The notes under the pieces are model-generated. The model was not told the DNA's origin. It was given only the letters and a program-made list of their open reading frames with translations, and did no database searches. A stretch of DNA of 64,000 bases, taken from assembly GCF_004010195.1 (NCBI RefSeq), contig NC_057719.1, positions 20,484,731 to 20,548,730 on the forward strand, given 5' to 3'. This stretch comes from Chiloscyllium plagiosum. Its lineage: Eukaryota. Made by a program: the position numbers and the translations under genes. How positions within the stretch are numbered: the first letter of the stretch is position 1; each line of letters starts with the position of its first letter. Below are positions 54 to 64,000 of the stretch, one piece after another.

Positions 54-2690
54 ATGGCGAGAGCGGTGGAGCTTCTCATCAAAAGGAAAAAGGTAGCTTA
101 CATAAGGTGGAGGAAGCTAGGGTCAAGCTCAGCTCTACAGGATTACAGGCAGGCAAGGAAGGAGCTTAAAAATGGTCTGAGGAGAGCCAGGAGGGGACAC
201 GAGAAAGGCTTGGCAGAAAGGATTGGGGAGAACACAAAGGCATTTTACACTTATGTGAGGAATAAGAGAATGGTCAAAGAAAGAGTAGGACTGATCAGGG
301 ATAGCATAGGGAATTTGTGTGTGGAGTCTGAGGAGGTAGGGGAAGCCCTAAATGAGTTTTTTGCTTCTGTCTTTACGAAAGAAACAAACTTTGTAGTGAA
401 TGAAACCTTTAAAGAGCAGGTGTGCATGCTGAAATGGATCGAGATAGAGGAAGCTGATGGGCTGAAAATTTTGTCAAACATTAAGATTGACAAGTCTCCA
501 GGCCCGGACCAGATTTGTCTTCGGCTGCGGGAAACGAGAAATGCAATTGCTTCGCCACTTGCGAAGATCTTTTCGTCCTCGCTCTCCAGTGGAATCGTAC
601 CTGAGGACTGGAGAGAGGCAAATGTAATTCCTCTCTTCAAGAAAGGAAATAGGGAAATCCCTGTCAATTACAGACCAGTAAGTCTCACGTCTGTTGTCTG
701 CAAGGTGTTAGAAAGGATTCTGAGGGATAGGATTTATGACCATCTGGAAGATTTAATCATCTTGATTAAATGCAGTCAACACGGCTTTGTGAGGGGCAGG
801 TCATGCCTCACAAACCTTATCGAGTTCTTTGAGGATGTGACTAGAAAAGTTGATGAGGGTCAAGCTGTGGATGTGGTGTATATGGGCGTTAGCAAGGCAT
901 TTGATAAGGTTCCCCGTGGTAGGCTCATTCAGAAGGTCAGGAGGAATGGGATTCAGGGTAACATAGCTGTCTGGATACAGAATTGGCTGGCCAACAGAAG
1001 ACTGCGAGTGGTAGTAGAAGGAAAATATTCTGCCTGGAAGTCTGTGGTGAGTGGTGTTCCACAGGGCTCTGTCCGTGGGCCTCTATTGTTTGTAATTTTT
1101 ATTAATGACTTGGATGAAGGGATTGAAGGATGGGTCAGCAAGTTTGCAGACGACACAAAGGTTGGAGGTGTCGTTGACAGTATAGAGGGCTGTTGTAGGC
1201 TGCAGCGGGACATTGACAGGATGCAGAGATGGGCTGAGAGGTGGCAGATGGAGTTCAACCTGGATAAATGCGAGGTGATGCATTTTGGAAAGNNNNNNNN
1301 NNNNNNNNNNNNNNNNNNNNNNNNNNNNNNNNNNNNNNNNNNNNNNNNNNNNNNNNNNNNNNNNNNNNNNNNNNNNNNNNNNNNNNNNNNNNNNNNNNNN
1401 NNNNNNNNNNNNNNNNNNNNNNNNNNNNNNNNNNNNNNNNNNNNNNNNNNNNNNNNNNNNNNNNNNNNNNNNNNNNNNNNNNNNNNNNNNNNNNNNNNNN
1501 NNNNNNNNNNNNNNNNNNNNNNNNNNNNNNNNNNNNNNNNNNNNNNNNNNNNNNNNNNNNNNNNNNNNNNNNNNNNNNNNNNNNNNNNNNNNNNNNNNNN
1601 NNNNNNNNNNNNNNNNNNNNNNNNNNNNNNNNNNNNNNNNNNNNNNNNNNNNNNNNNNNNNNNNNNNNNNNNNNNNNNNNNNNNNNNNNNNNNNNNNNNN
1701 NNNNNNNNNNNNNNNNNNNNNNNNNNNNNNNNNNNNNNNNNNNNNNNNNNNNNNNNNNNNNNNNNNNNNNNNNNNNNNNNNNNNNNNNNNNNNNNNNNNN
1801 NNNNNNNNNNNNNNNNNNNNNNNNNNNNNNNNNNNNNNNNNNNNNNNNNNNNNNNNNNNNNNNNNNNNNNNNNNNNNNNNNNNNNNNNNNNNNNNNNNNN
1901 NNNNNNNNNNNNNNNNNNNNNNNNNNNNNNNNNNNNNNNNNNNNNNNNNNNNNNNNNNNNNNNNNNNNNNNNNNNNNNNNNNNNNNNNNNNNNNNNNNNN
2001 NNNNNNNNNNNNNNNNNNNNNNNNNNNNNNNNNNNNNNNNNNNNNNNNNNNNNNNNNNNNNNNNNNNNNNNNNNNNNNNNNNNNNNNNNNNNNNNNNNNN
2101 NNNNNNNNNNNNNNNNNNNNNNNNNNNNNNNNNNNNNNNNNNNNNNNNNNNNNNNNNNNNNNNNNNNNNNNNNNNNNNNNNNNNNNNNNNNNNNNNNNNN
2201 NNNNNNNNNNNNNNNNNNNNNNNNNNNNNNNNNNNNNNNNNNNNNNNNNAGTTGGGAGGTCATGTTGCGGCTGTACAGGACATTGGTTAGGCCACTGTTG
2301 GAATATTGCGTGCAGTTCTGGTCTCCTTCCTATCGGAAAGATGTTGTGAACCTTGAAAGGGTTCAGAAAAGATTTACAAGGATGTTGCCAGGGTTGGAGG
2401 ATCTGAGCGACAGGGAGAGGCTGAAAAGGCTGGGGCTGTTTTCCCTGGAGCGTCGGAGGCTGAGCGATGACCTTATAGAAGTTTACAAAATTATGAGGGG
2501 TATGGATAGGGTAAATAGACAAAGTCTTTTCCGTGGGGTCGGGGAATCCAGAACTAGAGGGCATAGGTTTAGGGTGAGAGGGGAAAGATATAAAAGAGAC
2601 CTAAGGGGCAACGTTTTCACGCAGAGGGTCGTGCGTGTATGGAATGAGCTGCCAGAGGATATGGTGGAGGCTGGTAATTGCAACATTTAA
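54..2690 (+). pseudogene. CR1 ORF2 reverse transcriptase, partial and interrupted by an N gap
   Basis: Stop-free from 54 to 1292 with intact FADD motif. Frameshift near 2677 at the C-terminus. Confidence 0.85.
1293..2249. other. Assembly gap (957 N)
   Basis: Run of N. Confidence 1.
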
Positions 2691-6814: not shown

Positions 6815-7433
6815 GTCAAGATTAGAGTAGTGCTGGAAAAGCACAGCAGGTCAGGCAGCATTCGAGGAGCAGGAAAATCGATGTTTCGGGCAAAAGCCCT
6901 TCATCAGGAATGAGGCTGGGAGCCTCGGGGGTGGAGAGATAAATGGGAGGGGAGGTGGGGCTGGGGGGGAAGGTAGCTAAGAGTGCAATAGGTGGGATGG
7001 AGGAAGAGGTAAAGGTGACAGTCGAAGAGGAGGGTGCAGCAGATAGATGGGAAGGAAGATTGACAGGTGGGACAGGTCATGAGGATGGTGCTGAGCTGGA
7101 AGGTTGAAAGTGGGGTAAGGTGAGGTGAGGGGAAATGAGGAAACTGGTGAAGTCTATATTGATGGAGTTGGAGGGTCCTGAAGCAGAAGATGAGGCATTC
7201 TTCCTCCAGGCGTTGGGTGGTGAGGGAGTGGCGATGGAGGAGGCCCAGGACCTGCAAGTCCTCGGCAGAGTGGGAAGGGGAGTTGAAATGTTCAGCCACG
7301 GGACGGTGGGGTTGATTGGTATGGGACAAAACGTTGAATTTCCTGCTCCTCGGATGCTGCCTGACCTCCTGTGCATTTTCAGCATCACTTTAATCTTGAC
7401 TCTAATCTCCAGCATCTGCAGTACCCACTTCTG
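6815..7433. mobile_element. Penelope-like element fold-back insertion (minus-strand GIY-YIG C-terminus and terminus, then plus-strand terminus)
   Basis: Minus ORF PVAEHFNSPSHS..RLEEECLIF. Inverted terminal duplication. TSD ACTAGTCA(C/G)ATATA at 6801-6814 and 7434-7447. Confidence 0.85.
6876..6911 (-). ncRNA. Minimal hammerhead ribozyme motif (GUC mutated to AUC)
   Basis: Minus strand ATTC CTGATGA A GGGC TTTT GCCC GAAA C ATC GATT. Confidence 0.65.
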
Positions 7434-11159: not shown

Positions 11160-11580
11160 AGGCAGAGGTGGGTACTGCAAATGCTGGGGATTAGACTCAA
11201 GATTAGAGTGGTGCTGGAAAAGCACAGCAGATCAGGCAGCATCTGAGGAGCAGGAAAATTGATATTTCAGACAAAAGCCCTGCATCAGGAGCCCTTACTA
11301 TGCTGTTGGTGCTGAGGTTGGAGAAATCTGAGTTCATCTCTTGTGGTTGGAGGGTTCCTAGGCGGAAGATGAGGCGCTCTTCCTCCAGCCGTCTGGAGAA
11401 ATCTGAGCTCATCTCTTGTGGTTGGAGGGCTCCTAGGCGGAAGATGAGGCACTCTTCCTCCAACCGTCTGGAGAAATCTGAGTTCATCCCTTGTGGTTGG
11501 AGGGTTCCTAGGCGGAAGATGAGGCGCTCTTCCTCCAGCCGTCTGGAGAAATCTGAGTTCATCCCTTGTGGTTGGAGGGT
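11160..11580 (-). mobile_element. Penelope-like element fragment with decayed HHR and tandemly amplified GIY-YIG C-terminal segment
   Basis: Terminus homologous to the 6815 and 63483 copies. TSD TGATGTT at 11153-11159 and 11581-11587. Confidence 0.8.
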
Positions 11581-11581
11581 T
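11319..11581. repeat. 75-bp tandem repeat, about 3.5 copies
   Basis: TGGAGAAATCTGAG recurs at 11319, 11394, 11469 and 11544. Confidence 0.95.
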
Positions 11582-12589
11582 GATGTTGCCTCATTTGTAG
11601 GGTATTAACTATGAGGACAGATTGGACCTACTTGGTTTGTTTTCACTTGAGCCTCAGAGGCTGAGGGGCAACCTAATAGAAGTTTATAAAATTATGAGAT
11701 ACATGGATAGAATGGATGGTTGGAACCTTTTTCCCAGGGTAGATATGTCATTTACTTGGAGATGTAGGTTTAAGGCAGAAGGGGAAAAGGTAAAGGAGAT
11801 GTGAGAGGGAAGTTTTTTACACAGAGGATGGAATGCAGTACCAGAGGAGGTGGTAGAAACAGATACAATCGCAACATTTAAAAGTCACATTGACAGATAT
11901 ATGAAAAGGCTGGGAATAGAGGAAACATATTGTGTAGAGGCAAAAGCTTATTAGTTTAGAAAGGCATCATGTGTTGGTGCAGACTTGGTGGGCTGAAGGG
12001 CCTGATTCACTACCTGATATACTGCTCTTTTTAGAACAAAGGACCATTACTTTTACAAAGAAAATCTTTGTTTCTTATGGAACAGGATTGGGATTTAAAC
12101 TTAGACCAAAGTCCTGATTGATAAATAATTAGAGTGTAGAATTTACTTGGCCCAATTTCTATATGGTCCCTTGCTGGATATGAACATGGATCATATGCAG
12201 GGTAAAGCACTGCAGTTCTCATTTTATGGCACAAAATAAAATCACATTTCTTTCTTGTGTATTTTTCTGCTTACAAACCTGACAAAATGCCATTCAAGTC
12301 ATCCTACCAGATGGCAGTTCCAATTTGCTTCTTCTGACTCTGAGCTTTAACAAGGGAAGATATTATTTCCTGATTAAGCAAAGGCACACAAGACATCACC
12401 AAAATGTTTCACACATTGCATTTGTCCGCTAGTGCTCTGTGAACTGAAAAGTTCTAATGCCTGACTTTTAACTTTATCAGAAGGCAACTAAGGGAGCATT
12501 CTTCCTCTTGTGTTATTTCTGGAGAGGATAAGATAAAAATATTTTCTCATATTTATATATCCTCAAAGTGGGCTTATTTGAGATACATT

Positions 12590-33365: not shown

Positions 33366-33740
33366 TGATCTTTATCAAGAATTCAGAGTAACTCCACTCA
33401 AGCTGCCACGTGACTCTGCTGTTACCTAAATCGTGAGGCAGAAGAGGGAGTTGGTCCTGTTGACTAGTTTGGCAACAGCTTTGCCACAGTGAATTATGCA
33501 TGACATCGTCTTGTTCAGGAAGTTTACATATTCATTTCTGAAAGAACTTCAGTGACTCAACTACACTTGTCATGCCATTTAAAATCAGCAGACGTTCATG
33601 ATGAATAGATCAAATTAAAACTGTCCAAATTCAATTTCCCTGACATCTTTCGAAAATTCATCCTCTTTTAAAATACATTTATTTTCTCCGTGTGCATGTG
33701 CTTTGCCCAAGTCAACCAGCTCTGACTTTATCTGCTGGAG

Positions 33741-33783
33741 TCTGGATCAGTGGTGCTGGAAGAGGCAGCATCTGACGAGCAGC
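33741..33783 (-). mobile_element. PLE family A terminal fragment
   Basis: TCTGGATCAGTGGTGCTGGAAGAG is identical to 63485-63508. Confidence 0.7.
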
Positions 33784-42638: not shown

Positions 42639-42997
42639 TGGACTTCACCAGTTTCTTCATCCCCCCTCCCCCCACCTTGTCTCAGCCGAATCCCTCCAGC
42701 CCGGCACCGCCTTCCTGACCTGCAGTCTTCTTCTTGACCTCTCCGCCTCCACCCTACTCCGACCTATCACCTTCACCTTGACCTCTTTCCACCTATCACA
42801 TTTCCAACGCCCCTCCTCCAAGTCCCTCCTCCCTACCTTTTATCTTCTCCTGCTGAACACTCTCTGCCCATTCCTGAAGAAGGGCCTGTGCCCGAAACGT
42901 CGAATCTCCTGTTCCCTGGATGCTGCCTGACCTGCTGTGCTGTTCCAGCAATAAAGTTTCAGCTTTGATCTCCAGCGTCTGCAAACCTCACTTTCTC
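42639..42997 (+). mobile_element. PLE family A 3' fragment with HHR and tail
   Basis: Starts at GIY-YIG end (DFTSF), pyrimidine-rich tract, HHR. TSD CTTCACAGATGCT at 42626-42638 and 42998-43010. Confidence 0.88.
42870..42905 (+). ncRNA. Minimal type I hammerhead ribozyme motif, intact
   Basis: ATTC CTGAAGA A GGGC CTGT GCCC GAAA C GTC GAAT: perfect stem I and stem II, GUC triplet at 42899-42901. Confidence 0.8.
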
Positions 42998-60850: not shown

Positions 60851-61004
60851 AATGCCACAGGAGCCAGCTTACTGTTGAGCAGAGGTTATCTGATCCTCAT
60901 TATCTTCCTAGTCATAAGCAATTTGGGTGGCACAGTGGCGCTACTGTCTCTTAGTATCGGAGAATTGGGCTTGATTCCAGCCTTGGGCAGATGGGTTAGG
61001 CCTC

Positions 61005-61565
61005 CTAGCAGAGCGCTTTAGGGAACATCTCTGGGACACCTGCACCAATCAACCACACCGCCCTGTGGCCCAACATTTCAACTCCCCCTCCCACCCTGCC
61101 GAGGACATGGAGGTCCTGGGCCTCCTTCACCGCCGCTCCCTCACCACCCGACGCCTGGAGGAAGAACGCCTCATCTTCTGCCTCGGAACACTTCAACCCC
61201 AGGGCATCAATGTGGACTTCAACAGTTTCCTCATTTCCCCTTCCCCCACCTCACCCCAGTTCCAAACTTCCAGCTCAGCACTGTCCCCATGACTTGTCCG
61301 GACTTGTCCTACCTGCCTATCTCCTTTTCCACCTATCCACTCCACCCTCTCCTCCCTGACCTATCACCTTCATCCCCTCCCCCACTCACCCTATTGTACT
61401 CTATGCTACTTTCTCCCCACCCCCACCCTCCTCCAGCTTATCTCTCCACGCTTCAGGCTCTCTGCCTTTATTTCTGATGAAGGGCTTTTGCCCGAAACAT
61501 CGATTTTACTGCTCCTCGGATGCTGCCTGAACTGCTGTGCTCTTCCAGCACCACTAATCCAGAAT
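61005..61565 (+). mobile_element. PLE family A fragment (GIY-YIG C-terminus, pyrimidine tract, HHR) inside a decayed V-SINE (~60925-61636)
   Basis: AERFREHLWD..PVAQHFNSPSH..RRLEEERLIFCLGTLQPQGINVDF, typical PLE GIY-YIG C-terminal motifs. Confidence 0.88.
61470..61505 (+). ncRNA. Minimal hammerhead ribozyme motif (GUC mutated to AUC)
   Basis: ATTT CTGATGA A GGGC TTTT GCCC GAAA C ATC GATT. Confidence 0.65.
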
Positions 61566-62635
61566 AAGTCTCATAAATGTTGGGCTCCAGGGATAGGGTG
61601 GGATGCTCTTTGGAGAGTTGGTGCAGACACAGTGGTCTGGTGCACTGTATATATTTTAAAATTCCAGTCCAATTTGCCTGAAATTTCATTGATGTTTTAA
61701 TGTTAAATTCCATCAGCTCTCTCCCTTTCTCATTCTCTCTAGACAGCCATGTAATTTATATCCACAACCATTTTATGTAGTATTTGTCCTTTTTTGATAT
61801 AATGCACTTTGGCATTATAACATAGGAATATGGGAGTAGGCCATTTGGCCTGTCAATTTAAGAATGGCCACAGCAATTTGTGGATCTGACCCACTGTTGT
61901 AACAGTTCTTACCTTAACATTCAGCTCAGACAACATGTTGCCAGTTGTGTTGCTACAGCTGCCTGTATTGTGTCGAGGAGGTTAAACAAAGGGCAAAGTG
62001 CACAAAGGAACAGAAATGGTTCCCAGAAGGAAATCACAATCAGTTAGGTGTTCAGGGAGCTTTATGGAATTTTCAACTCAACAAGGAAGAGTGTGTGTAC
62101 AGTCTGCATTTTATGGAAGAGATGCTTGTTGAAATCTGCTGCCTGTTGAAGTGAGACTCTTCATGTTGAGGTCTGTCAACGCTGAATTTGATACCTCTCA
62201 CATTTTCCATTTTCCGATCCAGAGGTCATTGCTTGCCCAGCACAGCAGAAGAGGGACATGGCATTGCATTCTCTTTCCAGACAAAAATCAAACAGATTGT
62301 GCGTGGGGATTTTTTGGGTCAAGTGTGCATTATATTTTGCATAATGTTCATAGTTGATTTAATCTATTCTTTAAAATAGAGGGATTCAAATTGAGGGATT
62401 AATATGTGGTTCAGTCTAACAGATTTCAATGCATTTTTGAATACTGAAACCATTAATAACTGGACTGCTTTCAGCCAATGATCTGAACTGGCTCTTCCAA
62501 AGTCTCTCATGAAAAGCCTGATTCTGTGATGACTCAGAACAGGCTATTTTGTCCCTTTTAATTTTCTGACATGGGGGATTTTTGGACAGATTCCACTTTC
62601 TCTCCTGCAGACACACATGATGGGGATGTATCAGA

Positions 62636-62734
62636 TTTTGCTGAAGCTCCTCAGATGCTGCCTGAACTGCTGTGCTCTTCCAGCACCATTGATCCAGAAT
62701 CTGGTTTCCAGCATCTGCAGTCATTGTTTTTACC
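62636..62734 (+). mobile_element. 99-bp PLE family A terminal insertion
   Basis: TSD ATGTATCAGA at 62626-62635 and 62735-62744; matches 63615-63712. Confidence 0.88.
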
Positions 62735-63269
62735 ATGTATCAGACACCAGTCCATCAGAACAACAGACATCAACAGAACTCACCCTCAGTGGCAATTGAT
62801 TATCTTCCAAGAGACATATATGATGATCTGGGAGAGGACATCCAAACAAGAGGATTTTTCTTCAGGTTCTTAAGAGGATTTATCTTCATCAATGCAGTCA
62901 CATGGCACTGCTGTGTTGTTCTAACATGGATGTTGCTGTTATTCCAGTGCTATGAGTCCACGCTAGGTCTTCAAATGGCCCCATCTTCATGTTTGAGATG
63001 TGGATCCATCTCGGATTTGCAGCCAGCAGGTGCAGGGGGGTCTACGCCACCAGATGTGGACAGGTAATGTGAATTAAATAATCTTCACAAATTCATATAG
63101 ATTCAGTTTTTAAGGGAGAAGATGAGATTGAATGGCCTTTCCATGTAAGCTGGTAAATGATTAATCAAAGTTGCAGGGTGCTTAACAGTGCAACAATTTA
63201 CTATGCCCTATTATAATGGGGAAACTAAAGCCAATGTCACCAACACTATCACAAAATAATTAGCATTGC

Positions 63270-63445
63270 TGAAGGGATTAAGTTTAAAAGCAAGGAGATT
63301 ATGCTGCAGCTTTATAGGGTGCTGGTGAGGCCACCTGGGGTACTGCATACAGTTTTGGTCTCCTTACTTGAGGAAAGATGTACTGGCACTGGTGGGGGTG
63401 CAGAGGAAGTTCACTAGGTTGATTCTGGAGTTGAGGGGGTAACAG
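63270..63445 (+). mobile_element. CR1 ORF2 fragment
   Basis: LQLYRVLVRP..YCIQFWSPYLRKDV. Confidence 0.8.
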
Positions 63446-63542
63446 TATATAAGAACATAAGAACTAGGAGCATGAGTAGGCCATTCTGGATCAGTGGTGC
63501 TGGAAGAGCACAGCAATTCAGGCAGCATCCGAGGACAGGCAA

Positions 63543-63578
63543 AATCGACGTTTCGGGCAAAAGCCCTTCATCAGGAAT
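63543..63578 (-). ncRNA. Minimal hammerhead ribozyme motif (mirror copy)
   Basis: Exact reverse complement of 63583-63618. Confidence 0.78.
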
Positions 63579-63582
63579 ATTT

Positions 63583-63618
63583 ATTCCTGATGAAGGGCTT
63601 TTGCCCGAAACGTCGATT
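63583..63618 (+). ncRNA. Minimal hammerhead ribozyme motif
   Basis: ATTC CTGATGA A GGGC TTTT GCCC GAAA C GTC GATT; GUC at 63612-63614. Confidence 0.78.
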
Positions 63619-64000
63619 TTGCCTGTCCTCGGATGCTGCCTGAATTGCTGTGCTCTTCCAGCACCACTGATCCAGAATCTGATTTCCAGCATCTGCAGTC
63701 ATTGTTTTTACCTGCATGAGTAGGCCATCTGGTCCTTCGAGCCTGCACCGCCATTCAATAAGATCGTGGCTGATCTTTTTGTGGCCTAAGCTCCACTTAA
63801 CCACCATCTCACTGTAATCCTTAATTCCTTTACTGTTCATAACATTATCTATCTTAGCTTTAAAAGTATTCAATGAGGAAGCCTCAACTACTTCACTGGG
63901 CAGGGAATTCCACAGATTCACACCCCTCGGAGCGAAGATGTTCCTTCTCATTTCGTCCTAAATCTGCTCTGCCTAATTTTGAGGTTATACCCTTTTGTCC

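Follow-up and report, generated by a model that had tools for sequence, protein, structure and literature searches.

In the twin priming of L1 elements, both target strands prime cDNA on one RNA and the products are united at a microhomology joint, the two cDNAs covering different parts of the element. Non-LTR retrozymes are small, non-coding, dispersed elements bearing hammerhead ribozymes (HHRs), and are organized as tandem same-strand units of a fixed monomer. Penelope-like elements (PLEs) are a useful family for asking how inverted ends and tails arise and whether hammerheads cut in cells. The combination of inverted pseudo-LTR (pLTR), tail and target-site duplication (TSD) has already been published: the available portions of PMC3846280 and PMC8557442 describe EN+ PLE insertions with head-to-head, 5′-truncated pLTRs, a tail at one end, a TSD and an HHR within the pLTR. 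For Poseidon PAc of the green anole, the accessible text of PMC11167929 reports that the PLE protein, predicted to form a dimer, nicks and extends both strands in vitro and starts reverse transcription (RT) at two internal sites bounding the tail, one downstream of the HHR and the other at the start of the ORF. Minimal PLE hammerheads, in the available sections of PMC4209133, have a core of CUGANGA and GAAA-N-N-UH, an unpaired base before helix II, a G-C closing pair and a palindromic 15.2-16.2; the same sections note opposite-strand HHR pairs 100-700 bp apart, and report no cleavage by single minimal motifs and low cleavage by tandem motifs. The function of PLE HHRs is qualified as 'still unclear' in the accessible part of PMC8557442.

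The insertion described here was found in a 64,000-nt stretch of Chiloscyllium plagiosum DNA (the window), and is a real, young and ordinary copy among hundreds, of a shape that is already known. In contrast to L1 twin priming, in which the cDNAs cover different parts, the two cDNAs of the shark stub would overlap almost fully, yielding a palindrome; unlike retrozymes, the stub has an inverted and variable structure and descends from an autonomous PLE. It shares with the EN+ PLE insertions of PMC3846280 and PMC8557442, as far as their available text goes, the features listed above, but its copies are only ~100-135 nt long and the entire insertion is a hairpin; furthermore, the TSDs of the shark palindromes measure 13-19 bp as against 8-10 bp in the rotifer EN+ PLE cases of the accessible literature. 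The features of the locus are:

63470..63484, plus strand: left copy of the TSD, 15 bp (GCATGAGTAGGCCAT), with a private T at 63473
63483..63579, minus strand: inverted 5′-truncated pLTR copy, from -4 to RT start site 1 (+93), tail-less, overlapping the TSD by 2 nt
63547..63574, minus strand: predicted minimal hammerhead motif, mirror of 63587-63614, by inspection of the sequence
63580..63678, plus strand: direct 5′-truncated pLTR copy, from -6 to +93 (+1 = 63586)
63587..63614, plus strand: predicted minimal hammerhead motif, by sequence inspection, folds, and features as in the available text of PMC4209133
63679..63713, plus strand: 35-nt PLE 'tail', ending at RT start site 2 (+128)
63714..63728, plus strand: right copy of the TSD, 15 bp (GCATGAGTAGGCCAT)
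63442..64000, minus strand: 3′ end of a CR1-like LINE (C-terminus of the ORF, 3′ UTR, tandem tail), split by the insertion

Positions are numbered from the first C of CCTGATGA (+1 = 63586). The perfect inverted arms (63483-63579 and 63582-63678) are 97 nt each and 100% complementary, with 2 nt between them, and the left arm shares the final 2 nt (AT) of the left TSD copy. Relative to the CCTGATGA word, the right arm starts 6 nt and the left arm 4 nt upstream, and the joint is blunt. The 97-bp perfect arms, 35-nt tail and 15-bp TSD described in an earlier note on this DNA were re-found, the TSD at the same coordinates; its 'TT spacer' is likewise present as two nucleotides but is no separate spacer, these being two further templated bases of the right arm. 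Folded as RNA, the palindrome reaches -214 kcal/mol, whereas shuffled sequences average -77 (z -24).

On the strength of its sequence, the palindrome arm is the 3′ pLTR of a Neptune/Nematis-type PLE. This assignment follows from two natural copies (L276 and L279) that join a GIY-YIG domain (PF01541), preceded by a CxxxxCxxC linker, to the 3′ UTR and the marker-bearing pLTR; in the available text of PMC8557442, the Neptune and Nematis clades are recognized by a CX2-5CxxC linker that lies upstream of GIY-YIG. Homologues carry RVT_1 and GIY-YIG, the nearest among named proteins (86% identity) belongs to Chiloscyllium punctatum, and in full elements the tail continues into the beginning of the ORF (656 exact junctions). 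No gap-free, full-length parent was recovered, the candidates presenting interior N gaps or an internal deletion. Over 134 nt, arm plus tail have a single difference from the natural tandem copy L196, and the depth of the subfamily marker is ~52 in the contigs of a related organism, where it is thus nearly absent, as against 168,000-227,000; the subfamily is therefore young. What characterizes EN+ PLE insertions is accordingly found at the locus, namely a parent with RT and GIY-YIG domains, an inverted 5′-truncated copy at the 5′ end, a one-sided 35-nt tail (30-40 bp class) and a 15-bp TSD.

Other traces of the family were encountered. At ~61000-61565 of the window, a 5′-truncated PLE belonging to a sister subfamily and comprising the endonuclease end, 3′ UTR and pLTR stops at start site 1 and is tail-less, and older pLTR fragments lie at 2870-2915, 6826-6911, 7329-7422, 11174-11290, 33738-33764 and 42870-42983, with tandem repeats of the endonuclease end in an older fragment near 11300-11600. 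Elsewhere, the start of the ORF is fused to the 3′ UTR in many short copies (L173-L188), at a point that differs in almost every one, which suggests that template jumps returning to the RNA's 5′ part were frequent; a ~31-bp minisatellite (L195) is built from the PLE ORF start.

The host of the insertion is a minus-strand repeat with a C-terminal stretch of ORF, a 3′ UTR and a short tandem tail, which we take to be CR1-like from its motifs; a Pfam search of this element returned no family. Subject to that label, the placement of the insertion in a CR1 3′ UTR by the earlier note holds. Both TSD copies carry a T (63473 and 63717) where the host repeat mostly has G in contigs (17,732 of 18,415 in depth, X1); this locus-private base in both copies means that the duplication was made at the palindrome locus. 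Three contig sets and one raw RNA run yielded family-level signal only, with neither a piece spanning the palindrome locus nor a clean empty-site joint; the raw RNA run showed no locus-specific RNA or sharp RNA starts, and the A>G rows in it occur in DNA too.

We next consider the palindrome within its family. Exact counts over the genome gave 52,331 occurrences of an HHR 17-mer and 5,972 of the subfamily marker, together with 1,224 palindromes whose centre lies 0-25 nt from both cores and 760 subfamily palindromes with a gap of at most 200 nt (exact pattern counts), while reversed-pattern controls gave 0. Two samples were drawn: 50 palindromes, comprising 49 distinct loci among the first 50 matches listed of the 760 plus the window locus, and 100 unselected arms, being the first 100 matches listed of the downstream marker, of which 17 hit assembly gaps. 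In the palindromes, the 5′ ends of the arms range from -54 to +30, with 79 of 100 in -10..+12; 48 of the 50 centres are distinct, and the joints show microhomology of 1-4 nt in 24 cases, are blunt in 10 and contain extra bases in 16. Among unselected arms, 34 of the 72 at risk end in -10..+10, the corresponding figures for the 20-nt intervals on either side being 5 of 37 and 11 of 83 (Fisher p 6e-4 and 6e-6). Of the pLTR-to-ORF copies reaching the HHR that were readable (n = 8, by eye, 30 loci), 3 start there and 5 extend far upstream. The apex is thus a hot zone and not a fixed end.

The 3′ ends of the unselected arms are bimodal, 46 lying at +85..99 and 53 at +118..140, and the two positions (+93 and +128) match the two in vitro RT start sites in the accessible text of PMC11167929. 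The palindromes combine site 1 with site 2 in 37 of 50 cases and the same site twice in none (37/37 mixed; binomial p ~6e-12), the remaining 13 having one end outside both classes (short, gapped or duplication-stopped). A TSD of 13-19 bp was present in 40 of the 50 and a one-sided tail in 37. At their 5′ end, tail-bearing arms were shorter than their partner in 20 of 37 palindromes, longer in 12 and equal in 5; in those 20, each arm has sequence that its partner lacks, and neither is a simple copy of the other. At an A/G subfamily site, the two arms agree in 37 of 40 palindromes against ~59% expected from random templates (p 3e-6), a concordance that suggests a single RNA or a single source locus. 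In two copies (L070 and L369), the inverted part is the tail alone, as expected from non-overlapping twin priming.

Overall, these data are best explained by a short PLE insertion through two-ended priming of one RNA, a reading to which we give a probability of roughly 0.65. The PLE endonuclease would make cuts staggered by 15 nt in the target, whose two 3′ ends would prime reverse transcription on the element RNA, one at each of the internal start sites 35 nt apart. Both cDNAs, we infer, would halt prematurely, close to the hammerhead's 5′ side (at -4 and -6), and the two short products would be joined head to head into a palindrome with a tail on one side only, this palindrome being a dead by-product formed anew with each insertion. 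The stub is one of hundreds, each of which was likely built afresh when it landed, by copying from both cut strands. Weighing against two-ended priming, the mechanism is deduced from end products only, the in vitro work concerns a Poseidon element of a different clade (PMC11167929, in its available portions), and an inverted neighbour was flagged for only ~37 of 100 unselected arms. Either two-ended priming is not obligatory, then, or the second cDNA is often lost from one-armed insertions.

The closest competitor is a fold-back, in which a site-2-primed cDNA would snap back at its 3′ end and copy itself before the endonuclease resolves the product at site 1; a variant with self-priming antisense RNA, proposed in the accessible text of PMC3846280, belongs to the same reading, and 'EN-mediated resolution' has been put forward in that of PMC8557442. 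Fold-back accounts for the identity of the arms and suits the A/G concordance (37/40) equally well, so that the latter does not single out two-ended priming; the 5′ end position of one arm correlates with that of the other (Spearman 0.47), and ~6-7 of 30 junctions at +30 share one recurrent, hairpin-like centre, as snap-back self-priming of cDNA would also produce. Under fold-back, however, the tail arm should never be the 5′-shorter one, and it was so in the 20 palindromes above, by at least 4 nt in 16; in 3 of 40 palindromes the A/G site is not the same in the two arms, some loci carry a 17-bp duplication in one arm only, and among solo copies endings at sites 1 and 2 are about equally frequent. 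We therefore consider fold-back unlikely. Of the earlier note's 'fold-back product of PLE integration', PLE integration stands, whereas the asymmetry of the arms speaks against the fold-back part.

The other suggestion of the earlier note, a minimal non-autonomous HHR-hairpin unit, corresponds to a retrozyme- or MITE-like element transcribed and retroposed as such by the PLE protein. Palindromes of similar size do number in the hundreds (760 and 1,224), and the apex falls in a hot zone where a few simple centres recur. Tabulating apex positions, the check by which the earlier note would have its unit refuted, nonetheless gave 48 different centres among 50, spread from -54 to +30, in place of a fixed internal structure; the diagnostic marker is not the hairpin's own but is common to long, ORF-linked copies joined to the PLE 3′ UTR and endonuclease; the exact centre of the window's palindrome recurs at 2 other loci (3 in total), in one of them with the tail on the opposite arm; and the tandem same-strand HHR repeat typical of retrozymes is absent. 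Because the centres vary and long copies share the marker, there is no defined unit: the palindrome is not a defined mini-element but is likely made anew at each insertion, and a self-standing hairpin element appears very improbable. More improbable still is that a short-read assembler mirrored one repeat arm. Long PLE copies do contain N gaps, identical chimeric stretches do occur on several chromosomes, and since no contig or read spans the palindrome locus (three contig sets and one raw RNA run), assembly error is opposed only indirectly; mirroring, however, would neither duplicate a locus-private base in the TSD nor generate the site-1/site-2 polarity and a nearly unique centre per locus. 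An identical 386-bp chimeric PLE stretch seen beside gaps on several chromosomes (L255-L264) probably reflects collapsed or misplaced assembly of long copies.

By inspection, the hammerhead motif consists of CUGAUGA, an unpaired A, a 4-bp helix II and GAAA-C-GUC, with the cut predicted between 63614 and 63615 (+29/+30). Compared to the minimal PLE hammerheads of PMC4209133, in its available sections, this predicted motif matches in the conserved core, the unpaired base before helix II, helix II itself, the G-C closing pair and the palindromic 15.2-16.2, and differs in having a helix II of 4 bp and a proximal helix I of only 2 bp. Rfam searched over the whole window at E<=1 returned no hammerhead family, and three miRNA-like hairpin matches below gathering score. 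One minimal motif is nevertheless recognizable by eye on each strand, as the earlier note had it, and folding supports its view that the stem sequesters its own ribozyme: imposing the HHR fold carries a penalty of 58 kcal/mol for the palindrome and of 4 kcal/mol for the parent context, in which a longer, extended helix I is folded with upstream sequence missing from the stub. Being alone on their strand, whereas minimal PLE hammerheads require a partner on the same strand, and being buried in a 97-bp stem and devoid of the extended helix I, the two hammerheads of the stub are likely inactive.

Evidence bearing on cleavage in the parent RNA came from counting, per position, the copies that depart from the family sequence with two foreign bases. 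The 5′ junctions at +31, +30, +29, +28 and +27 numbered 14, 81, 9, 5 and 7, respectively, +30 being the first base after the predicted GUC cut, with a possible bias in these counts from two-base classes that differ among positions (RR, RY, YR). The first 30 of the 81 at +30 were all junctions, with no point changes, 17 continuing as an inverted arm, 11 as flank or unassigned sequence and 2 as sense sequence. In a second subfamily, four positions gave 38, 155, 56 and 51, the 155 falling at the predicted cleavage bond; 20 inspected matches included ~5 local changes and 2 deletions. A first count at the cut site (533 versus 41 and 54) was rejected as inflated, ~19 of 30 matches being a 17-bp duplication; in a control to this earlier count, 9 of 15 inspected matches had T before +30 and themselves resembled +30 junctions. 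The single-base spike suggests cleavage in vivo or RT stalling, and run-off on cleaved RNA fits it; a stall at a predicted +4..+29 hairpin and G microhomology are both live alternatives. In Poseidon PAc, an element of another clade, no RNA-seq reads begin or end at the HHR site according to the available text of PMC11167929, in contrast to the junction spike in the shark.

Taking both lines together, we tentatively propose, at slightly less than even odds, that one RNP brings both ends of the target to one RNA, each at a different start site, and that a few per cent of the templates are self-cleaved by the minimal hammerhead in the germ line, leaving the spike at the scissile bond. If true, a twin-priming rule would explain inverted pLTRs and the one-sided tail, shark genomes would hold a large record of PLE integration, and the spike would show in vivo that PLE hammerheads cleave, evidence described as lacking in the literature consulted. 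This one genome yields rules that can be tested: each start site gives one arm, a single RNA is the source, and junctions peak on one base at the predicted cut. In the available portions of PMC3846280 and PMC8557442 we saw no statement of strict site-1/site-2 pairing, and neither this pairing nor the cut-site spike was found in a literature search on PLE twin priming, palindromic shark PLE stubs and HHR-site junctions that covered titles and the start of abstracts (subscription papers, the repeat databases Repbase/Dfam and supplements being outside its scope). The census also implies hundreds of near-perfect hairpins of 60-100 bp in the genome, which may be sources of dsRNA if transcribed.

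Two further observations were made around the cut site. A recurrent 17-bp tandem duplication starting exactly at +30 (L345-L371) sits in one or both arms of palindromes and affects ~6% of marker copies, as extrapolated from 30. Within the window, a solo pLTR stub with tail at 62626-62744 is flanked by a 10-bp direct repeat, and its 5′ junction lies at GATTTT (62634), the predicted hammerhead cut site, with a 2-nt overlap with the repeat.
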